Shown: positions 6,481-31,694, numbered from the stretch's first letter. The stretch is DNA of 32,000 nucleotides from Pseudidiomarina andamanensis (GCF_009734345.1 NZ_CP032551.1:2310001-2342000); one strand, 5' to 3'. A program made the numbers and translations. The notes: generated by a model from the letters alone, not told the origin.

Positions 6481-6650
6481 CGTTAGTCGTTGTTCGTTAT
6501 TCGTTAGTCGTTATTGGTTATTCGTTATTGGTTATTCGAAAAAGCGAAATGAAAAACCCAAAACATCACAACGAAAAGTGAGCTAATACGTCTGCGAATT
6601 CTCCGGCTAACAAAACTCACGAATAACCAATAACGAATAACGAATAACGT
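6481..6650. repeat. Heptamer-armed hairpin element, copy a
   Basis: The left arm is 6482-6537 with 8 units (GTTAGTC GTTGTTC GTTATTC GTTAGTC GTTATTG GTTATTC GTTATTG GTTATTC). The core is 6538-6619. The right arm is 6621-6648 with 4 units (GAATAAC CAATAAC GAATAAC GAATAAC). The element fills nearly all of the rimK-to-M14 spacer. Confidence 0.9.
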
Positions 6651-8022: not shown

Positions 8023-8173
8023 CGTTGTTCGTTGTTCGTTATTCGTTATTCGTTATTCGTTGTTCGTGAGTTTGGTTCGCTGGAGAATTCGAGAACGAAT
8101 TTGCTTACTTTTCTGTGCGATGTTTTTGGTTTTTCGTTTTTTTCGAATAACGAATAACCAATAACGAATCACG
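8023..8173. repeat. Heptamer-armed hairpin element, copy b
   Basis: The left arm is 8024-8065 with 6 units (GTTGTTC x2, GTTATTC x3, GTTGTTC). The core at 8066-8143 is homologous to the reverse complement of the copy-a core. The right arm is 8145-8172 (GAATAAC GAATAAC CAATAAC GAATCAC). The last unit contains the stop codon of the gene at 8169-8855. Confidence 0.9.
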
Positions 8174-14929: not shown

Positions 14930-14975
14930 CCCGGCCTTCTCTTACAGAAGGAACGCCGGGTGGCGCGAAGCGCCG
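14930..14975 (+). terminator. Double hairpin module immediately after the thyA stop (CCCGGC...GCCGGG, then GGCGC-GAA-GCGCC)
   Basis: The stems are read directly from the sequence. There is no clear T-tract, so terminator function is uncertain. A near-identical module follows the tcdA stop at 20348-20380. Confidence 0.4.
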
Positions 14976-14982
14976 TGTTGAC

Positions 14983-15070
14983 GTTATTGGTTATTCGTTA
15001 TTCGAAGAGAGCTTTGAGTAACGACTCGGCATTGCAACAAACCCCAGAGCTCCTAGACACGAATAACCAA
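14983..15070. repeat. Heptamer-armed element, copy c (short arms)
   Basis: The left arm is GTTATTG GTTATTC GTTATTC (14983-15003). A distinct core follows, then a single right unit GAATAAC (15061-15067). Confidence 0.7.
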
Positions 15071-15488
15071 AGTGAAAGAAGGGTATGTATATCCCCCCTT
15101 TTTGAAAAACCAAGTTTTCATTGACTAGTATAAAGTGCTTAATACGTTACCTAAGTGCTATTTTGTTGTGATTGGGTTCTTTTTATAGGTCTTTATCGTA
15201 GCTTTCTTTAATCTTGAGGTTTTGGTTGCCGACATCATTTAATATCCGATTATTCGTACTTTTCAAGCTAAAACTCATAATAAAGTTCAATTATGGTAAT
15301 ATAAGCCGCATTTTGAATTTTCATGTTTTTCAGAGAATAGCCCCACACATACACCCATCAACGCAGTCCCCCAACCCTACCAGTTTCTATTTCTTTTTGT
15401 GTCTCAAATATCGCATTTAATAGCTAAAATAATCAGTCAAAGTGCAAATAAAAGAACTTTACTTTATCTATCGCAAGGTCTACGCTTT

Positions 15489-15577
15489 AACGAATAACGA
15501 ATAACGAATAACGAATAACGAATAACGAATAACGAATAACGAATAACGAATAACGAATAACGAATAACGAATAACGG
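15489..15577. repeat. Perfect tandem array of 12 x CGAATAA, right-arm type only
   Basis: Twelve identical 7-bp units span 15491-15574. The array ends 11 nt before the hipB-like ATG at 15586. Confidence 0.97.
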
Positions 15578-15585
15578 ACGAAGCC

Positions 15586-15912
15586 ATGCTCTCACCTGCA
15601 GCCCAAGCCGAACAACTCGGCGAACGCCTCAAACAAGCGCGACTTAACGCGAATATTACCCAAGTGCAGCTTGCAGAGCAGGCAGGGGTATCGCGTAAGA
15701 TTGTATTGAATGCCGAAAAAGGCCAAGCCACGCTTGAGAACTTTGTCGCCTTAATGCAAGCGCTTGATCTCACTGCACAGTTAGATAATTTCTTGCCGCC
15801 ACAACCAATATCTCCGGTGCAGCTGAAAAAGCTGCAAGGCAAGAAGCGTAAGCGCGCGACAGGCTCTCGAAGCAAAGGATACGATGACGAATTGGATGTT
15901 GATGCATGGTAA
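15586..15912 (+). CDS. hipB: XRE-family HTH antitoxin, HipB-like
   Basis: The HTH is ITQVQLAEQAGVSRKIVLNAEKGQ, the protein is 108 aa, and it overlaps the downstream HipA gene. Confidence 0.8.
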   Translation: MLSPAAQAEQLGERLKQARLNANITQVQLAEQAGVSRKIVLNAEKGQATLENFVALMQALDLTAQLDNFLPPQPISPVQLKKLQGKKRKRATGSRSKGYDDELDVDAW

Positions 15913-17222
15913 TGGAAGTTATTGGAGTATGGTACCAAGACCGCGAAGTTGGCGCGTTGAGTTTTGACACGGCGCGTGGTGTTGGTGCATTTGAATATAC
16001 GCCAGAATTTCTAACCAGTGGTATTGAGTTAGCACCACTGAAAATGCCACTAAAAAAACAAATTTATAGCTTTCCTGAATTAAACTTTGAAACCTTTCAC
16101 GGACTACCAGGCCTCACGGCTGATTCGCTTCCAGATGATTTTGGTAATGCGGTGCTCAATGCATGGGTAGCTAGCCAAGGTAAACAACCGAGCGACATTA
16201 CGCCGTTGCAGCGCCTGCAATATACAGGTAGGCGCGGCATGGGCGCACTTGAGTATCGACCGGCGACACGGCTTCGGGGCTTTGAGAAGTCGCAAGACGT
16301 TGAAATCAAAGAGCTCATTAAAGTGGCGCAAGACGTACTGAATAAACGCTCGCAATTTCACGTCGAGCTTGATCCGAGTGGTAAAACAGATCAAGAGGCG
16401 ATGTTGTCGTTGCTCTCGGTAGGGATGAGCGCTGGTGGCGCTAGACCCAAAGCGGTATTAGCCTTCAGTGGTGATTTTACCGAAGTGTGCTCAGGCCAAA
16501 CCGATGCACCTGAAGGGTTTGTGCATTACATCATGAAGTTCGATGGTGTGACCGAGCGCACTATTCAGCGGGAAACATTTGATGATCCGCAAGGGTTCGG
16601 AGCCATGGAGTACGTCTATTATTTGATGGCGCGTGAGTGCGGTATCGAGATGATGCCATGCCATTTGTTGGACGAGGGCGATCGGCGCCACTTTTTAACG
16701 CAACGATTTGATCGCCGTGATAACGAAAAGCTTCATGTGCAAACGCTGACAGGTATCGCACATGTCGATTTCAAAAAGCCTGGAAGTTTTTCCTACGCTG
16801 AGCTATTCGCCGTCGCGCGACAACTCAAGCTCAACGCTCATGAGGCGGAGCAGCTTCTACGACGCATGATTTTTAATATAGTCGCCCGCAATCATGACGA
16901 CCACGCAAAGAATTTCGCGTTTCTCTATCAAAACAACCGCTGGCAACTCGCACCAGCGTATGATCTTGCATACAGTTACAAGCCTGGTAGTAAATGGGTG
17001 AATCAACACTGGATGCAGCTCAACGGTAAACGAGAAGACTTCACTCGCGCCGATCTACATAGCCTCGAAAAAGTCAGCCCTATGTTTACCCGCAAGCGCA
17101 TCGACGCCATTCTCGAGCAAACCACTGAAGCAGTCTCCAAATGGCGACACCTCGCCAAAGAGCAACAAGTACCAGTCGACTTAATTAACGAGATCGCCTC
17201 GAATCACCGCCTCGACCTCTAA
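15906..17222 (+). CDS. hipA: HipA-family serine/threonine kinase toxin
   Basis: The 438-aa protein has an N-terminal HipA coupling region (VGALSFD, GLPGLTADSLPD), a P-loop-like GMSAGGARPKAVL, the catalytic loop ARNHDDHAKNFAF and LAPAYDL. ATG 15906 overlaps hipB by 7 nt. ATG 15912 (TAATG) is an alternative start. Confidence 0.88.
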   Translation: MVMEVIGVWYQDREVGALSFDTARGVGAFEYTPEFLTSGIELAPLKMPLKKQIYSFPELNFETFHGLPGLTADSLPDDFGNAVLNAWVASQGKQPSDITPLQRLQYTGRRGMGALEYRPATRLRGFEKSQDVEIKELIKVAQDVLNKRSQFHVELDPSGKTDQEAMLSLLSVGMSAGGARPKAVLAFSGDFTEVCSGQTDAPEGFVHYIMKFDGVTERTIQRETFDDPQGFGAMEYVYYLMARECGIEMMPCHLLDEGDRRHFLTQRFDRRDNEKLHVQTLTGIAHVDFKKPGSFSYAELFAVARQLKLNAHEAEQLLRRMIFNIVARNHDDHAKNFAFLYQNNRWQLAPAYDLAYSYKPGSKWVNQHWMQLNGKREDFTRADLHSLEKVSPMFTRKRIDAILEQTTEAVSKWRHLAKEQQVPVDLINEIASNHRLDL

Positions 17223-17248
17223 TATCCAATATCCAATATCTAATATCG
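17221..17248. repeat. Short tandem heptamer AATATCC AATATCC AATATCT AATATCG
   Basis: Read directly from the sequence. It starts inside the hipA stop codon. This is a different unit from the CGAATAA family. Confidence 0.8.
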
Positions 17249-17313: not shown

Positions 17314-19119
17314 ATGTCAGTCGTCGCATGGATTGCTTTAGCAATTTTATTGTTGGCAGTATTTTTATTTTTTAAATTCAGAAAATTTCGTGGGTTTGTT
17401 TTTCTGACTTTGTTTGCCGCACTATTGGGCATGATATTTGGTCCTCCGTCTTATGTGGTGCACGAAGGCTACACTACAACCCTACGAAACGATCCAACTA
17501 ATACGCGCTATCATTATGCTTGGGCTGTCAATAAACTGGCGCCGACAGAAGCAAAGCGGGCAAAATTGGGCATTTATAATCCCGAAACAGGTGAATTTCA
17601 GCGCTTCAATGAGGAGCTGGCAAAATCTGCTAATCTCGCATTTATTCCGCCAAGCCAACCAACTTGGTTGCTCAATATTTGGTGGTGGATATTTCCAGCA
17701 ACCTATTTGGCGTTCTATATTCAGCGCCGATTTGGGCTATTAGCCAGCTTTGGCGGTGTATTTTACTTCGCGCGGCGTAACAAAAACTGCCAAGAAAAAC
17801 TCGATTTTGCTCGACAACAACGAACGATCTGGGCGTACGAAGATGCTCTAAAACTTTTCCAAAGCTATCGTTTCAAACCCAAACGATTTATTGAACAGGC
17901 GACGCAAGAGTCGGCAGCTATTTACCAGACTTATAAATTACGTGTGCAAACACTCCAGAAACTGTATCGAAATGCCGCAGAGACGCTGCAAAATCGCGAT
18001 GTCACTGCATTCACGAAAACGGGTAAGTTGTTTGCCATTGCTGATTTTATGGGGCTTCTTGGTGAATTGCTGCATGACCGAGAACGCACACAGATGCCGA
18101 ACCTTGCACTCGAGATAACGTTGGATAAGAACTGGCATTTATTTAGCCCAGAACACCGAAAATTTGTCGGTTATTCGAGCATTACAGAGCTTGAGAACAC
18201 CAAACTCAATCAAATTGAAGAGCGTTGGCGCCGAGAAATATCCTCTGCACAACCGATCTCACAGCTGACCGAGTACTATGCGCAAAATGTGAAGTCATTT
18301 GAACAGCAACGCGATAACGTGCGTACGACGGAGTCCGCGCAAAATTACGTTTCTGCAGAGTTGGCGGCGTTTTGGCAGGTGGCTGAATCTCAACTAGCCG
18401 GTGAGTTAACTGAGCAAAACCGCGTCAGCGCACAACGTTACGCGAATGATTATTTTATTAATCGACTGTTTAAAGCGGTGTCAGATCCGACCGCTTTTAA
18501 GTATTTTCATCAATCGTTTGAGAAAAACTTGAGCAAGACGCTCGCCATCATTTTCTCTTCCTATTTTCCAGAAGAACAATGGCATGGTCGGGCACTATTT
18601 AGCGAGCAAAAATCCGAGTCGATTCAGCAGCGGCAATTGCTTTTCAAATTGATTCCAACCGGTCGCTTAACCGGCGGTGCTCCAACCGTTGAAAGTGAGG
18701 TGTCACAGTGGGTTGGTCAGCAAACGGTTTGGGTGAGACGGTTGAATCAACCGCAGCTACCAAATCGATTTAAATCAAAGGCCGATGCATTCGGTGATAT
18801 CACAGCAACGGCCATGTTACGAGATGCGTTCAACACCAGAAAGCAGATACCACAACCGAACTCTCATAAAGTAACAGAACTTGCTCAAAAACATGTCTTA
18901 GATGAACTAAATGAGACGGTGAAAGAGCTTGCACATGGAGTCGGTGAAGACCTCGCACTCGAGTTGATCAACCAAATTATTGACGGCAACGGCGTTAATG
19001 CAATTATCCAATTTGAACAAGTTGTTGATAGCGAATTAAGTAGTCTGGTATTCAATTCGCTAGAAAACGCGGCAAGCTTATTTGAAGCAGGTTTAGGCTT
19101 TTTGGGAGGTGATGATTAA
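17314..19119 (+). CDS. Hypothetical 601-aa inner-membrane protein (about 4 N-terminal TM helices plus a large helical soluble region); no recognisable domain
   Basis: This is a long uninterrupted ORF. Its hydrophobic segments are VVAWIALAILLLAVFLFF, FVFLTLFAALLGMIFG, WLLNIWWWIFPATYLAFYI and LLASFGGVFYFA. The remainder is rich in Q/E/K/R heptad-like sequence. I see no catalytic motif. Confidence 0.6.
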   Translation: MSVVAWIALAILLLAVFLFFKFRKFRGFVFLTLFAALLGMIFGPPSYVVHEGYTTTLRNDPTNTRYHYAWAVNKLAPTEAKRAKLGIYNPETGEFQRFNEELAKSANLAFIPPSQPTWLLNIWWWIFPATYLAFYIQRRFGLLASFGGVFYFARRNKNCQEKLDFARQQRTIWAYEDALKLFQSYRFKPKRFIEQATQESAAIYQTYKLRVQTLQKLYRNAAETLQNRDVTAFTKTGKLFAIADFMGLLGELLHDRERTQMPNLALEITLDKNWHLFSPEHRKFVGYSSITELENTKLNQIEERWRREISSAQPISQLTEYYAQNVKSFEQQRDNVRTTESAQNYVSAELAAFWQVAESQLAGELTEQNRVSAQRYANDYFINRLFKAVSDPTAFKYFHQSFEKNLSKTLAIIFSSYFPEEQWHGRALFSEQKSESIQQRQLLFKLIPTGRLTGGAPTVESEVSQWVGQQTVWVRRLNQPQLPNRFKSKADAFGDITATAMLRDAFNTRKQIPQPNSHKVTELAQKHVLDELNETVKELAHGVGEDLALELINQIIDGNGVNAIIQFEQVVDSELSSLVFNSLENAASLFEAGLGFLGGDD

Positions 19120-19505
19120 TGAAGACGTCTAGTTTTGTTCTATTCATGACGCTCATTGTCAGCATGCCTGTTCAGGCACAAGACAGCTGGGGGCGAAAGC
19201 TTGGCGAAGTACTCGGTGAATTGCCGTTGGCAGATTATTATCGAAGTGCCACCAGTTTCAATGATGTGCATTGGGTAAATGATGCCCAACTGCGAGAAGC
19301 GAATGTGCTGTACAAGATTAGCGCAAGTAGCAACGTGAATGTGCGTGCCGCCGCAACCACCGACAGCGCTGTCATATCAAGTTTACCAGCAAATAGTCTC
19401 GTGCAGATTCTGTCAAAACGACCGTTTGAGCCATGGTTTAAAGTTCAATTAGCTGGCGGAACCGAAGGATTTATTCACGAGAGTTTACTTGTTCGCGTCG
19501 AATAA
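19119..19505 (+). CDS. Exported SH3b (bacterial SH3-like) domain protein
   Basis: A signal peptide MKTSSFVLFMTLIVSMPVQAQ is followed by NVNVRAAATTDSAVISSLPANSLVQILSKRPFEPWFKVQLAGGTEGFIHESLL, which looks like an SH3_3-type fold. The start overlaps the upstream stop (TAATG). Confidence 0.65.
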   Translation: MKTSSFVLFMTLIVSMPVQAQDSWGRKLGEVLGELPLADYYRSATSFNDVHWVNDAQLREANVLYKISASSNVNVRAAATTDSAVISSLPANSLVQILSKRPFEPWFKVQLAGGTEGFIHESLLVRVE

Positions 19506-20917: not shown

Positions 20918-21667
20918 ATGAAAGTATTAGTGGCGGTCAAACGCGTCATTGATTACAACGTGAAAGTTCGCGTCAAAGCGGACCAATCAGACGTTGATCT
21001 GGCCAACGTAAAAATGGCCCTGAACCCGTTCTGTGAAATCGCTGTCGAGGAAGCAGTACGACTCAAAGAAAAAGGCATTGCCGAAGAAGTTGTGGTTGTG
21101 AGCATTGGCCCGAAAGCGGTGCAAGAACAATTACGCACAGCGTTGGCACTTGGTGCCGATCGTGCAATCCAAGTAGAAACCGATGAGCTTCCAGATTCAT
21201 TAGCCGTCGCCAAGTTGCTGAAAGGCGTGGTGGAAAAAGAACAGCCACAGTTGATTATTCTTGGCAAACAAGCCATTGATTCTGACAACAACCAAACAGG
21301 TCAAATGCTCGGTGCATTGACTGGCATGCCGCAAGGTACGTTCGCATCGAAAGTTGACGTTGCGGATGGCAGCGTGAACGTCACACGTGAAGTAGACGGC
21401 GGTTTGCAGACGGTGAAGTTACAATTGCCAGCAATTGTCACCACTGACTTACGTTTGAACGAACCTCGTTATGCGTCATTACCAAACATCATGAAGGCGA
21501 AGAAAAAGCCGCTTGATGTGACCACGCCAGACGAATTAGGCGTAAGCGTAACTCGTACTGTGAAATTGCTAAAAGTTGAGCCGCCTGCGGAACGTAGTGC
21601 CGGCATCAAGGTAGCAGACGTCGCAGAATTGGTTGAAAAACTTCAAAATGAGGCAAAAGTGATATGA
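20918..21667 (+). CDS. etfB: Electron transfer flavoprotein beta subunit
   Basis: [35 protein letters not shown] and [19 protein letters not shown] are present. The start is taken at ATG 20918. The 24-codon track extension is rejected. Confidence 0.9.
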
Positions 21668-22593
21668 GCATTCTCGTTATTGCCGAACATGACAACGCAC
21701 AATTGAATGGCGCTACGCTGAAAACCCTCGCGGCAGCGAAGCAAATTGGCGGTGACATTCACGTCTTAGTCGCTGGTGAAGGCTGCCAGGCAGTTGCCGA
21801 CGAAGTTGCCAAAGCCGACGGCGTGAGCAAAGTTTTAGTTGCTGACAACGCAGCTTACGGTCACTTCTTAGCTGAAAACTTAGGTCAGCTTGTGGCTGAG
21901 TTAGGCAAAAACTACAGCCACATCTTGGCTCCAGCGACCACTACCGGCAAAAACTTCATGCCGCGTGTCGCAGCGCTGCTAGACGTTGCGCAAATCTCTG
22001 ACATTATCGCAGTAGAAAGCGCCGATACCTTCAAGCGCCCAATCTACGCGGGTAACGCAATTGCAACCGTACAGTCAGAAGACGCAATCAAAGTGATCAC
22101 CGTCCGTGCAACCGCATTTGATGCAGTTGCAGCAGAAGGCGGCAACGGCAGCGTTGAGTCTATCGATAATGTTGTAAACAACGATAAAGCTGAATTTGTT
22201 GGCGAAGAGCTTGCCCAGTCAGAGCGTCCAGATCTCACCGCAGCACGCGTCGTGATTTCAGGCGGTCGCGGTATGCAAAACGGTGAAAACTTTCACCTAC
22301 TTGAGAAAGTTGCTGACAAACTTGGCGCCGCTGTTGGTGCATCACGTGCCGCCGTTGACGCAGGCTTCGTACCAAACGACATGCAAGTCGGCCAAACCGG
22401 TAAAATTGTCGCACCTGAACTCTACATCGCAGTCGGTATCAGCGGTGCTATCCAGCATTTAGCCGGTATGAAAGACTCGAAAGTTATCGTCGCCATCAAC
22501 AAAGACGAAGAAGCACCAATCTTCCAGGTGGCAGATTATGGCTTAGTCGCTGACTTGTTCGACGTACTGCCAGAGCTAGAGCAAAAACTCTAA
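21664..22593 (+). CDS. etfA: Electron transfer flavoprotein alpha subunit
   Basis: [70 protein letters not shown] are present. The start overlaps the etfB stop by 4 nt. Confidence 0.92.
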
Positions 22594-22604
22594 AGACGAA
22601 GAGC

Positions 22605-22724
22605 GTTAGCCGTTATTCGTTATTGGTTATTCGAAAGAGCGAAAACCAAAAGCGTAAAAACCGAAAATCTCCGTTGCACTTTGTGCGCGGAGATTTTTTT
22701 ATCTTTAACGAGTAACCAATAACG
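22605..22724. repeat. Heptamer-armed hairpin element, copy e, with an embedded terminator-like hairpin
   Basis: The left arm is GTTAGCC GTTATTC GTTATTG GTTATTC (22605-22632). The core contains ATCTCCG...CGGAGAT (22667-22694) followed by TTTTTTT. The right arm is GAGTAAC CAATAAC (22710-22723). Confidence 0.85.
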
Positions 22725-22850
22725 TTTTTCGGTTTTCTTTGCGGTTTTTTAACTATGCAAAGTGCGTGGACAGATTTTGAGACCGTTGCTATAACATCCA
22801 TATACGTCAATGATCATATATCAACGTTTATAGTGAAGGATGCTCAAGGC

Positions 22851-23726
22851 ATGAAAACAATACTAACAAAGTCTCTGACAGCATTAACCCTGACCACCGC
22901 CCTTACTGTTATCAGTGCACCAAACGCACAAGCTGAGACCATTGAAGTGCGCGGCCATATTAATTATGGCTATAGCTTCAATCCAACGGGAGTGACTCAA
23001 TACCAAGGTGGCGAGTACGTGCTTGAAATTACGCAGCGTCCGCAAATGCCACTGGTATATGCCGCGAGTACATGGCGCCAATACAGTGATGCTATCGATC
23101 GCGTCACTGTTTCAGTGTATGACAGCGAAGGCAATGCGGTGAGCGTACGTCAACCACTGGCCGCAACCGAGCTCGGTGAACCAACCACCAATACTTTATA
23201 TTTCGATTATGGATACCGCTCAAATTACACCAGCTGGACCATGCTCGGATTAAATAAAGATGGTTACAACAGCCAACTCAATTTAAATCTGCGCGGGCCG
23301 CGCGATAGCTTGTTTGCATCAACGGCTGAGTTTCCACGTTTCGTAAACACTCCCCGGTACGTGAACGCTACTATGTTTTCAAACGTGGAAACCGCCGATG
23401 GTGATGATGTCGTCTATATTTATGGCCCGGTTACGGAAGTGAATTACCTCACTGCAGATAGTGACGGCGATGGCATTAATGATGACGTTGATGCTTGTCC
23501 AGCGTCAGACATCAGCCGCACTGTGGTCATTGATTTTACGGATACCGGTGTTTCCAATAGTGTGGATAGCACAGGTTGCTCGGTAACCGACAAAATTTTG
23601 GCATGCCAAGCCGACGCGAAAAACCGTGGTGATTTTGTTTCTTGCGCGAGCCACTTGGCGAAGCAGTTGCGTAAAGAAGGTGTCATCAGCAATAGTGAAC
23701 ACGGCGCACTCCTCCGTCACCTCTAA
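22851..23726 (+). CDS. Hypothetical secreted protein with an acidic Ca-binding-type repeat
   Basis: The start is taken at MKTILTKSLTALTLTTALTVISAPNAQA (signal peptide). The motif DSDGDGINDDVDACP resembles thrombospondin type-3 / OmpA-like Ca-binding repeats. The C-terminus is Cys-rich. Confidence 0.6.
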   Translation: MKTILTKSLTALTLTTALTVISAPNAQAETIEVRGHINYGYSFNPTGVTQYQGGEYVLEITQRPQMPLVYAASTWRQYSDAIDRVTVSVYDSEGNAVSVRQPLAATELGEPTTNTLYFDYGYRSNYTSWTMLGLNKDGYNSQLNLNLRGPRDSLFASTAEFPRFVNTPRYVNATMFSNVETADGDDVVYIYGPVTEVNYLTADSDGDGINDDVDACPASDISRTVVIDFTDTGVSNSVDSTGCSVTDKILACQADAKNRGDFVSCASHLAKQLRKEGVISNSEHGALLRHL

Positions 23727-23734
23727 AGTCAAAA

Positions 23735-23870
23735 CGTTATTCGTTGTTCGTTATTGGTTAATCGAAAAACCGAATAGCGAAAAAGCCTGAAGACCGAAAA
23801 TCTCCGCTGCGCTCTGCGCACGGAGATTTTTTATGTTTAACGAACAACGAATAACGATTAACGAACAACG
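23735..23870. repeat. Heptamer-armed hairpin element, copy f
   Basis: The left arm is GTTATTC GTTGTTC GTTATTG GTTAATC (23736-23763). The core is homologous to the copy-e core, including the ATCTCCGCTGCGC...GCGCACGGAGAT hairpin (23800-23827) plus a T-run. The right arm is GAACAAC GAATAAC GATTAAC GAACAAC (23842-23869). Confidence 0.9.
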
Positions 23871-23957
23871 ATTTTTTTCCTAACGAATCACTTGCATATT
23901 TGTAACTCATCGGACATGATTGAACCTATAACATCCTAATCGGATTAGGTGGCTAAC

Positions 23958-25847: not shown

Positions 25848-25939
25848 CGTTAATCGTTAATCGTTATTCGTTACTCGTTAAATGTGCCTAGAATCGAATA
25901 ACTAGTAACGAATAACCAATAACGAATAACCAATAACGA
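25848..25939. repeat. Heptamer-armed hairpin element, copy g (minimal core)
   Basis: The left arm is GTTAATC GTTAATC GTTATTC GTTACTC (25849-25876). The centre is about 18 nt. The right arm has 6 units, GAATAAC TAGTAAC GAATAAC CAATAAC GAATAAC CAATAAC (25896-25937), and runs into GAGG, the likely SD of the next gene. Confidence 0.9.
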
Positions 25940-29644: not shown

Positions 29645-30310
29645 ATGACAGCACAGGCATTCAGCTGGAGCGACCTGCTCGGCGATGAAAAGAATCAACC
29701 GTATTTTCTTGAGCTCATGCAGCGGGTACAGTGCGAACGCAATGCGGGTAAACAAATTTATCCACCAAGCGACCAGGTATTTCAGGCATTTAAACTGACT
29801 GCGCTAGCTGATTTGAAGGTTGTGATACTCGGTCAAGACCCATATCACGGCCCAGGCCAAGCTCATGGCTTATGTTTTTCAGTACCAGCTGGGGTGAAGC
29901 ACCCGCCGTCACTGCGTAATATCTTCAAAGCCATTCAGCACGATTATCCTGATTTTCAGATACCTGAGTCAGGTAATTTAGAACACTGGGCGCAGCAAGG
30001 CGTGCTGCTGTTAAATACGGTGTTGACGGTGGAGCAGGGCAAAGCTCACTCACATGCAAGTTGGGGATGGGAAACTTTCACCGATAAAGTGGTTGAACAA
30101 ATTAACCAGCATTGCGAAGGTATCGTGTTCTTGTTGTGGGGTGCGCATGCACAAAAGAAAGGCGCGTTGATTAATCGCAAGCGCCATCATGTTTTAGAGA
30201 CGGTGCATCCGTCGCCGTTATCGGCGCATCGCGGCTTTCTCACCGCTGGCCACTTCCGCCAAACCAACCAACTGCTCACGCAGCAAGGCAAAAGCGTTAT
30301 TCGTTTTTAG
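29645..30310 (+). CDS. ung: Uracil-DNA glycosylase
   Basis: [31 protein letters not shown] and HPSPLSA are present in a 221-aa protein. The last about 5 codons (VIRF-stop) lie inside the left arm of repeat copy h. Confidence 0.93.
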
Positions 30311-30389
30311 TTATTCGTTACTCGTTATTCGAGGGTCTCGATTTTCGCTTTTGGTTTATCGAATAACCAATAACGAGTAACGAACAACG
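30296..30389. repeat. Heptamer-armed hairpin element, copy h
   Basis: The left arm is GTTATTC GTTTTTA GTTATTC GTTACTC GTTATTC (30296-30330). The short core is AGGGTCTCGATTTTCGCTTTTGGTTTAT. The right arm is GAATAAC CAATAAC GAGTAAC GAACAAC (30361-30388). Confidence 0.9.
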
Positions 30390-30731: not shown

Positions 30732-31532
30732 ATGCATCCGATGTTAAACATAGCGGTGCGCGCAGCGCGTGCGGCCGGTAAAATTTTAGTCAAAAACTTT
30801 GGCGTAGAAGTTGACCTTAACGTTCAAACGAAAAGCCAAAACGATTTCGTCACCGAAATTGATAAATCGGCTGAAAGTGCCATCATTCGCACCATTCAAA
30901 AAGCCTACCCAGATCACTCTTTCTTAGCAGAAGAAAGTGGTGAAGTGGTTGGCAAAGACAGCGACCATCAGTGGATTATTGACCCACTTGACGGTACCAC
31001 CAATTACCTGCGCGGTATTCCTCATTTTGCCGTATCTATCGCTTACCTATTTAAAGGTGTTGTGCACGCAGCCGTCGTTTATGATCCGCTGCGCGAAGAA
31101 CTATTTACCGCAACCAAAGGCCAAGGTGCACAGCTAAACGGCAAGCGTTTACGCGTAACCAAACAACGCGACTTGAACGGTGCTTTACTAGCCACCGGTT
31201 TCCCATTCAAACGTAAAGACATGACCAAAGATTATCTCGCGGTGTTTGCAGCGTTATTCGAACACACAGCTGATATGCGTCGTGACGGCTCTGCAGCTCT
31301 AGACCTTGCATATGTTGCTACCGGCCGTATCGATGGTTTCTGGGAATTCAGCCTCAAACCATGGGATATTGCAGGCGGTCAATTAATCGTGCGTGAAGCG
31401 GGCGGTATCGTCACAGATTTCGCTGGCGGTCATGGCTTTATGCGCAACGGTCACGTGGTAGCAGGTAATCCGAAGGTAGTGCAGCATTTGCTAACCAAAG
31501 CGCGCCCGCACTTACCTGAAAGCTTGAAGTAA
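30732..31532 (+). CDS. suhB: Inositol-1-monophosphatase family protein SuhB
   Basis: MHPMLNIAVRAARAAG, FLAEESG, WIIDPLDGTTNY and WDIAGGQLIVREAGG are present. Confidence 0.92.
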   Translation: MHPMLNIAVRAARAAGKILVKNFGVEVDLNVQTKSQNDFVTEIDKSAESAIIRTIQKAYPDHSFLAEESGEVVGKDSDHQWIIDPLDGTTNYLRGIPHFAVSIAYLFKGVVHAAVVYDPLREELFTATKGQGAQLNGKRLRVTKQRDLNGALLATGFPFKRKDMTKDYLAVFAALFEHTADMRRDGSAALDLAYVATGRIDGFWEFSLKPWDIAGGQLIVREAGGIVTDFAGGHGFMRNGHVVAGNPKVVQHLLTKARPHLPESLK

Positions 31533-31534
31533 AA

Positions 31535-31675
31535 CGTTACTCGTTATTCGTTATTGGTTATTTGTTGACGGCGGTAGCGAATAGCCAAGAATTCCGCGCA
31601 GCACCGGAGCAAAATTCGGAGCTGCGCGTAACAGCAAAAGAAGCCACGAATAACGAATAACCAATAACGAACAAC
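31535..31675. repeat. Heptamer-armed hairpin element, copy i
   Basis: The left arm is GTTACTC GTTATTC GTTATTG GTTATTT (31535-31562). The core holds an imperfect hairpin GCGCAGC...GCTGCGC. The right arm is GAATAAC GAATAAC CAATAAC GAACAAC (31647-31674). Confidence 0.9.
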
Positions 31676-31694
31676 GCAGTTAAAGGTTTAAACC

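Follow-up and report, generated by a model that had tools for sequence, protein, structure and literature searches.

A perfect heptamer array at the start of a hipBA-like module in Pseudidiomarina andamanensis is probably one arm of a genus-specific inverted repeat element

RESULTS

A homogeneous heptamer array directly precedes a hipBA-like module

We analyzed a 32,000-nucleotide (nt) stretch of the Pseudidiomarina andamanensis genome (GCF_009734345.1, NZ_CP032551.1:2310001-2342000), here called the window, in which twelve tandem copies of the heptamer CGAATAA stand immediately before a gene pair resembling the hipBA toxin-antitoxin module. An initial annotation of the window had proposed that this array might act as a contingency switch, in which slipped-strand changes in unit number alter the expression of the module. 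The features at the start of the module are the following, with positions counted from the first letter of the window.

15491..15574, + strand: (CGAATAA)12, all units identical; right (A-rich, hipB-side) arm of the inverted heptamer pair between thyA and hipB; probable hipBA 5' leader
15575..15585, + strand: 11-nt linker CGGACGAAGCC separating the array from the ATG; Shine-Dalgarno sequence weak or absent
15586..15912, + strand: hipB-like helix-turn-helix antitoxin gene (XRE, or Y4mF "couple_hipB"-like), 108 amino acids; HTH_3, 3e-8
15906..17222, + strand: HipA-family kinase toxin gene, 438 amino acids; HipA_C, 8e-53; Couple_hipA, 2e-19

Direct reading of the sequence and Tandem Repeats Finder (TRF) agree that the twelve units at 15491-15574 are identical, as initially annotated: TRF calls a period of 7 at 15488-15576, with 12.7 copies, 100% matches, and a score of 178, the highest in the window. 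The array is both the longest in the window and the only one that is 100% homogeneous, the runner-up of the same family, at 6481-6538, having 8.3 copies with 82% matches. The hipB start codon, an ATG at 15586, follows directly after CGGACGAAGCC, and the Shine-Dalgarno sequence is as weak as had been supposed, since the best duplex with the anti-Shine-Dalgarno sequence reaches -3.2 kcal/mol in the window and -0.3 to -3.2 kcal/mol across all 14 Pseudidiomarina loci that we compared (the window, 12 other species, and the close strain L001; L numbers designate loci in the comparison). What had been described, a perfect repeat prone to slippage immediately before a hipBA-like module, is therefore confirmed. 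No T-run follows the array, its place being taken by CGGACGAAGCC, and Rfam gave no family match anywhere in the window.

We attach next to no weight to the idea that the array arose by chance or is an assembly artifact. A two-unit probe with at most two mismatches matched the window 63 times, against 0.31 matches expected from shuffled sequences, so that the heptamer matches cannot be put down to chance. Both flanks of the array recur in independent Logan assemblies from several samples, with contigs that break within it, which argues that it is real, and orthologous arrays are present in 12/12 other species. Two coding interpretations were discarded: translation of the array, because TAA recurs every 7 nt and closes all three plus-strand frames, and the minus-strand open reading frames (ORFs) at 15464-15595 and 15480-15938, which are repeat-derived products of a mechanical ORF listing.

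The HipB-like protein resembles TIGR03070 (the Y4mF "couple_hipB" subfamily) with a score below the model cutoff, and it matches the solved structure 4ghj at 1e-20. The HipA protein of the window falls below every NCBIfam cutoff; E. coli HipA matches it at only 3e-7, marking it as a distant family member, and its best solved relatives are HipT-like (1e-11). Calling the module "hipBA-like" is justified by these matches, and the term "persistence kinase," which implies a toxic kinase that takes part in persistence, would apply only at the level of the family. The two reading frames share 7 nt (ATGGTAATG), an overlap that suggests translational coupling. HipB-type repressors autoregulate.

The array is paired with a second arm behind thyA

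TRF detects the same repeat family at eight other loci in the window. Its paired elements lie at the following positions.

6481-6538 and 6619-6649
8023-8067 and 8144-8173
14982-15004 and 15059-15070
22611-22633 and 22709-22722
23735-23764 and 23839-23871
25848-25881 and 25895-25939
30295-30331 and 30360-30389
31535-31566 and 31646-31676

Read 5' to 3' according to the flanking genes, an element runs from a stop codon through (CGTTATT)n, a core, and (CGAATAA)m to the start codon of the next gene. Several cores hold a GC hairpin and T-run like those of an intrinsic terminator, the A-rich arm is usually followed by CG, a T-run, and a Shine-Dalgarno sequence before the start codon, and the eight paired elements fold as long stems around the core (z of -4.3 to -8.5). 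An A-rich arm precedes about one-quarter of the window's gene starts by no more than about 35 nt, so that placement next to a start codon characterizes the family as a whole and not the hipB array in particular. Our literature search turned up no description of heptamer repeats in Idiomarina or Pseudidiomarina.

The 12-unit array shares with this family its tandem CGAATAA/CGTTATT-type units, its stop/start placement, and a complementary partner arm. The last point overturns the initial view that the array has no nearby left-arm partner and is not a hairpin copy. Two segments downstream of thyA are relevant here.

14982..15004, + strand: left (T-rich) arm, units CGTTATT, GGTTATT, and CGTTATT followed by CG (CGTTATTGGTTATTCGTTATTCG), 53 nt past the thyA stop codon; from the repeat search
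15059..15070, + strand: short right-arm remnant ACGAATAACCAA, complementary to the left arm at 12/12 positions; P. marina clade only

The left arm is 96% complementary (22/23) to every register of the array, at a distance of 486 to 549 nt. A T-rich arm likewise follows thyA at 12 of the 13 other loci (12 species and strain L001); in L020, none lies within the first 110 nt after thyA. A typical Pseudidiomarina locus thus has a T-rich arm after thyA, an interior of 250 to 500 nt, and an A-rich array reaching up to the hipB ATG, and in all species the promoter and the candidate operators described below lie between the two arms. Arm-to-arm complementarity amounts to 40/43 in L022 (inner junction included), 34/34 in L026, 43/49 in L025, and 37/40 in L027. 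The mean arm-match score is 48 for arms of the same species versus 30 for arms of different species, and several species have units of their own that are common to both arms. In L025 and L027, the hipB-side arm also contains, in reverse complement, the stop codon and GC-rich terminator hairpin of thyA (TAGCCCGGCGTTATACGCCGGG), about 60 to 110 nt upstream of hipB and in two copies in L025 and one in L027, so that the inverted symmetry of the spacer reaches past the heptamer units. The right arm is longer than the left at 14/14 loci. By these matches, the array belongs to an inverted pair framing the whole thyA-hipB spacer, of which it is the arm farther from thyA. It is an atypical member of its family, long-range or near-orphan, in that the compact hairpin of the other elements, with a loop of about 15 to 90 nt and a T-run, is replaced by a 486-nt loop that contains operators.

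It is tempting to speculate that pairing between the arms is itself under selection. Under this explanation, which we consider unlikely, transcripts reading through from thyA would form a T-rich/A-rich duplex of 20 to 45 bp that would be a target of RNase III or an obstacle to hipB translation; the toxin module would be insulated from outside transcription, and transcripts from the internal promoter, having no left arm, would be translated. The covariation of the arms between species, down to units found in a single species and the mirrored thyA stop codon and terminator of L025 and L027, fits such a role, as does the placement of promoter and operators between the arms, and the excess length of the right arm would offer many pairing registers. 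The minimum-free-energy fold of the thyA read-through RNA also joins the arms, pairing the left one with the first three units of the array. However, this pairing lies 60 nt from the ATG in the window and 30 to 110 nt upstream of it in L026, L025, and L027, so that the start codon is usually left uncovered. Read-through may moreover be rare, given the terminator-like hairpins after thyA, L020 shows no left arm over the 110 nt mentioned above, and the likeness of the arms could stem from template-switch copying instead of selection. Sequestration of the start codon itself by arm pairing was rejected, because the paired segments mostly lie 30 to 110 nt upstream of it. When the leader is folded alone, the entire array is unpaired (z of +0.94), and this fold offers no pairing partner within the same leader.

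The candidate operators all lie upstream of the array

The spacer between the arms contains two features that bear on the regulation of the module.

15439..15460, no strand assigned: candidate HipB operator, perfect copy of the palindrome AAAGT-N12-ACTTT; closest copy to the array, ending 30 nt ahead of it
15102..15131, + strand: sigma-70-like match TTGAAA-18-TAGTAT, possible distal hipBA promoter and the only plus-strand consensus match in the spacer

Weaker copies of the palindrome occur in the window near 15133 and 15283. Allowing for at most one mismatch, its 22-bp form TAAAGT-N12-ACTTTA is found in one to four copies per Pseudidiomarina spacer, nearly always with 12 nt between the half-sites, and in every one of these spacers all copies are located upstream of the array. 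For comparison, we used about 67 orthologous loci from other genera, with 67 to 71% HipA identity. Where the palindrome is found there (at most one mismatch), it sits at about -22, -62, -100 to -115, and -139 to -157 relative to the ATG, with the last copy abutting the ATG; an ACTTT-like half-site falls within the final 12 nt before the ATG in 49/67 of these loci, often together with a GGA/AGGA ribosome-binding motif. We propose TAAAGT-N12-ACTTTA as a candidate operator of this HipB subfamily. Upstream of hipB in L016-L095, which comprise Pseudidiomarina loci and many orthologues of Marinomonas, Microbulbifer, Alteromonas, Pantoea, and others, it recurs one to four times per locus at a spacing of about 40 nt.

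In Pseudidiomarina, the array would thus hold the ATG-adjacent place that the last operator and the ribosome-binding site occupy in other genera. Because it lies between the last candidate operator and the ATG, the array would fall in the 5' leader, downstream of the promoter-operator region, and we take it to be most likely 5' leader and not promoter spacing. The initial annotation had allowed for either promoter-operator space or the 5' untranslated region (UTR). The second option is favored by the upstream location of all candidate operators, and with it the proposed change in promoter or operator spacing falls away. A promoter inside the array was rejected, since no sigma-70-like hexamers occur in or after it, and so was binding of HipB to the array, whose unit has no similarity to the AAAGT/ACTTT half-site. 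Sigma-70-like sites are as frequent as expected (2 found versus 2.4), and the -10-like hexamer of the site at 15102-15131 is conserved in L001 and L016.

The arrangement of the spacer also raises the question of a role at the level of DNA, with the arms serving as iterated sites for some protein or as recombination or inversion sites flanking the hipBA promoter, as in an inverton. Inverted repeats do flank a promoter-containing segment of 250 to 490 bp, and the units are iterated like those of protein-binding arrays. Nevertheless, we regard such a role as very improbable: the unit is unlike the HipB half-site, the arms at the eight other loci flank terminator cores and not promoters, no recombinase gene is adjacent, and the interior keeps one orientation across the window, independent strain contigs (L013, L015, and L001-3), and P. 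marina. The inverton proper was rejected on this last ground, the orientation being constant in all contigs and species seen.

Unit number varies between strains, at hipB and elsewhere

Had unit number been invariant between strains, the idea of a repeat-driven switch would have lost its basis. It does vary: among strains whose HipB protein is identical, there are 2 units in L001-L003, 12 in the window, and at least 5 in others, and P. marina has 3 + 1 units together with seven 16-mers. The count of at least 5 reflects seven contigs that start and two that end inside the array, whose tract exceeds the assembler k (presumably k = 31 for the Logan assemblies), so that exact counts are not recoverable. 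The thyA-side arm varies as well, strains that share the same ThyA protein having 3 to 5 units. A metagenome scan with the 18-mer at the array/hipB junction gave 15 matches, all of them unrelated chance matches.

This variability is shared by a gene that has no connection to a toxin-antitoxin module. Upstream of the RimB-like gene (8023-8067 in the window), the mosaic arm has 6, 3, or 4 units among strains with an identical protein, and two loci of P. gelatinasegens type (L119 and L120) have a perfect orphan array, (CGAATAA)7 or (CGAATAA)3, with no left arm and with an identical flanking protein. The orphan array (at about 385 to 450) begins at the stop codon of a DUF2982 gene and ends 14 nt before the RimB-like ATG. 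Hypervariability is therefore a family trait and not specific to hipBA, and the uniqueness initially ascribed to the hipB array is lost.

The picture changes when array presence is compared across species. A 7-nt-based array reaches the hipB ATG in 14/14 Pseudidiomarina loci and in none of the approximately 67 orthologous loci of other genera. Its makeup in the genus is as follows.

Window: (CGAATAA)12 before the hipB ATG
L001-3: one 16-mer and (CGAATAA)2
P. marina (L016): seven 16-mers (CGAACAGCAAAGCGTA), (CGAATAA)3, and CGAACAA
L018: (CGAATAA)6
L019: (CGAATAA)4
P. atlantica (L022): (CGACTAA)11, perfect
L024: about 22 CGAACAT
L021 and L023: 14-mers
L025-27: 16-mers and 23-mers

The position of the hipB-side array is thus kept genus-wide, and its sequence is wholly different between loci. 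At the RimB-like comparator locus, arrays are absent in P. atlantica, P. homiensis, and Idiomarina; at a second comparator, an S9-peptidase locus, P. insulisalsae has the same synteny with one unit per side only, and a strain of P. woesei type has none. Two side observations concern these arrays. A GCGAAGC motif, known as an unusually stable DNA mini-hairpin, occurs after the thyA stop codon (14961-14975 in the window) and also inside 16-mer and 23-mer units (CGAACAGCGAAGCGCA) of several species, the arrays that bear it being those of L017-L019 and L025-L027. Outside the genus, Gilvimarinus gilvus (L090) has a perfect heptamer array, (GGGGTAC)11.3, 171 to 249 nt upstream of the orthologous hipB; this unrelated genus uses a different unit, and its array does not abut the ATG.

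These data bear on the contingency locus of the initial annotation, in which slippage in 7-nt leader steps would stochastically set hipBA expression and hence the frequency of persisters in subpopulations. The array is the longest and only fully homogeneous one in the window, its copy number varies among strains with identical HipB, and long homogeneous expansions appear to have arisen independently at the same site (CGACTAA in 11 units in L022, CGAACAT in about 22 in L024, and the 16-mer in seven in L016). Arrays have been kept at hipB in all species examined and lost at the two comparator loci, and a rheostat made of heptamers in a 5' UTR has a precedent in H. influenzae hmw (ATCTTTC)n (PMC12721329). 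Against this, copy number varies and perfect orphan arrays occur at the non-toxin-antitoxin gene as well, the density of the family at gene starts would lead one to expect an array next to hipB, the upstream location of all operators leaves no spacing effect, the leader has no internal pairing partner like that of hmw, and gene overlap with the expected autoregulation would buffer the effect. On balance, we judge a contingency locus to be distinctly unlikely.

The hipBA-like module is an old resident of its site

The relatives of its HipA place the window in Pseudidiomarina, P. marina PIM1 being the nearest species representative (95%). The order thyA-hipB-hipA-(variable)-tcdA is kept in 12/12 retrieved Pseudidiomarina species and in one close strain, so that hipBA is an old resident of the site and no recent island. 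Two stretches of the window, each about 2 kb long, are identical to GCA_054779515.1, and exact-protein look-ups with the proteins encoded at 22755-23726, 30732-31532, and 21664-22593 matched only this assembly or an identical strain.

The variable segment between hipA and tcdA contains a 601-amino-acid ORF (17314-19119) without a match in Pfam or NCBIfam and, downstream of it, the gene of an SH3_3 protein (19119-19505). The 601-amino-acid protein has 41 to 53% identity in its closest relatives, versus 95 to 99% for the flanking genes, and several species have neither gene, tcdA there directly following hipA. The pair looks like a fast-evolving insert adjoining the toxin-antitoxin module. A further repeat stands at the end of hipA.

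17220..17247, + strand: second heptamer repeat, TAATATC/CAATATC, four mosaic units, beginning with the hipA stop codon; TRF

This repeat has six perfect units in P. marina (L016, 4315-4356) and none in L001, and in one strain (L118) TAATATC-type units stand in for CGAATAA units upstream of the RimB-like gene. TAATATC/CAATATC would accordingly be a second unit class of the heptamer family, with the hipBA operon bracketed by repeats in this clade.

DISCUSSION

The account that we consider probable, with appreciable room for doubt, is a composite one, in which the array forms the hipB-side arm of an inverted heptamer element specific to the genus, serves as the hipBA leader, changes by slippage, and has at most a graded effect. 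The element class would be specific to Pseudidiomarina and consist of inverted 7-nt arrays, with T-rich (CGTTATT)n following the first of two genes and A-rich (CGAATAA)m leading into the second. Both arms would frame the thyA-hipB spacer, with the operators and promoter of hipBA between them. The array would be transcribed as the hipBA 5' leader and would grow, shrink, and become homogenized by replication slippage, the 12 identical units pointing to a recent expansion. Because all candidate operators are upstream of the array, unit changes would leave operator spacing unaltered and affect leader length only, not the geometry of promoter and operators. In transcripts from the hipBA promoter, the array would be unpaired, A-rich, and devoid of a Shine-Dalgarno sequence; in thyA read-through transcripts, it would be able to pair with the left arm.

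The outcome would be at most a graded tuning of hipBA expression and no on/off contingency switch: graded tuning by unit number appears possible, whereas a dedicated on/off switch is unproven. Autoregulation, as known from the family, and the overlap of hipB and hipA would buffer an effect on expression or let both proteins covary, so that the shift in the HipB:HipA ratio that had initially been predicted is unlikely. The switch idea has thereby lost its main premises, namely, the uniqueness of the array, its missing partner arm, the effect on promoter spacing, and the change in HipB:HipA. What continues to be of interest is the genus-wide retention of an array at the start codon of a toxin-antitoxin module, together with the covarying arms.

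Several observations sit uneasily with the composite account. Arrays are kept at thyA-hipB in every species examined and were lost within the genus at both comparator loci, a difference that, with two comparators, hints at locus-specific selection at thyA-hipB beyond mostly neutral slippage. The leaders of L025 and L027 contain GC-rich hairpin copies, so that an unstructured leader is not universal. Finally, the sole consensus promoter match lies 455 nt upstream and is no better than chance.

A stronger form of selection would make the array a genus-conserved, hypermutable leader that replaced the ancestral last operator and ribosome-binding site and tunes toxin-antitoxin output through its length or through pairing with the thyA arm. 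We think that this is rather improbable. If true, it would provide heritable and quickly reversible variation in persister propensity between lineages, that is, a mutational rheostat on a bet-hedging module, and would reveal one function of a gammaproteobacterial counterpart, so far undescribed, of the short tandemly repeated repetitive (STRR) sequences of cyanobacteria. Should unit number alter hipBA output, two bet-hedging mechanisms would be linked, and this in a free-living marine bacterium and not in a host-adapted pathogen; our literature search turned up neither repeat-driven tuning of a toxin-antitoxin or persistence module nor a hipBA locus tied to tandem repeats. If instead the array is neutral, a perfect microsatellite at a start codon would be common background in this genus and not by itself a switch. 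In either case, the retention of the array through the radiation of the genus, with full turnover of its sequence and covariation of the arms over 250 to 500 nt, calls for an explanation by selection on RNA pairing or by active copying, and the hipBA locus offers a tractable site for studying the function of a repeat family found at eight other spacers of the 32-kb window.

Comparison with known systems

E. coli hipBA has four TATCC-N8-GGATA operators. The two modules are alike in the overlap of a helix-turn-helix antitoxin gene with a gene for a HipA-family kinase and in the several spaced palindromes upstream, which are operators in E. coli and operator candidates in the window; they differ in the half-site and spacing of the operator, TAAAGT-N12-ACTTTA in the window, and the HipA proteins are only distantly related (3e-7). 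The logic of the pairing explanation resembles that of the IS10/IS50 transposase genes, in which read-through transcripts fold back and inhibit translation: in both cases, the upstream complementary segment is present only in transcripts entering from outside. In the window, however, the predicted pairing stops mostly short of the start codon. Enterobacterial REP/BIME sequences are numerous, imperfect palindromes of about 35 nt that are intergenic and usually follow stop codons. Like the heptamer elements, they come in inverted pairs that form RNA stem-loops and vary in copy number between strains, yet their units are palindromes of about 35 nt, in contrast to the arrays of 7-nt units described here.

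The nearest parallel in mechanism is offered by the (ATCTTTC)n repeats in the 5' UTR of H. influenzae hmw1A/hmw2A, where expression drops as units rise and an RNase III-cleaved hairpin in the leader is needed (PMC12721329). There, a 7-nt tandem unit lies between promoter and start codon in the transcribed 5' UTR, and the window array shares this unit length and, probably, the leader position. Unit number varies between strains in both systems, and in hmw also within strains; the hmw repeat works as a rheostat with graded output and not by shifting the reading frame. Unlike the window array, the hmw repeat pairs with a G-rich partner in the same leader; the array is unpaired there (z of +0.94), its partner lying about 490 nt upstream, outside the likely transcript, so that pairing arises only in thyA read-through RNA. 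The hmw repeat is also locus-specific and controls a surface adhesin of a host-adapted pathogen, whereas the window array belongs to a window-wide family and precedes a toxin-antitoxin module of a marine bacterium.

As a class, the heptamer elements have their nearest structural parallel in the STRR sequences of cyanobacteria, reportedly described by Mazel et al. in 1990. STRR are 7-bp tandem intergenic repeats that are capable of forming hairpins and have no known function (PMC2670836). Both kinds of repeat consist of tandem 7-bp units scattered between the genes of one bacterial lineage, with hairpins possible. Their unit sequences and phyla are different, STRR units being those of heterocystous cyanobacteria and the window carrying CGAATAA-type units in a gammaproteobacterium, and the elements therefore look like a gammaproteobacterial analogue of the STRR repeats and not like a member of that group.

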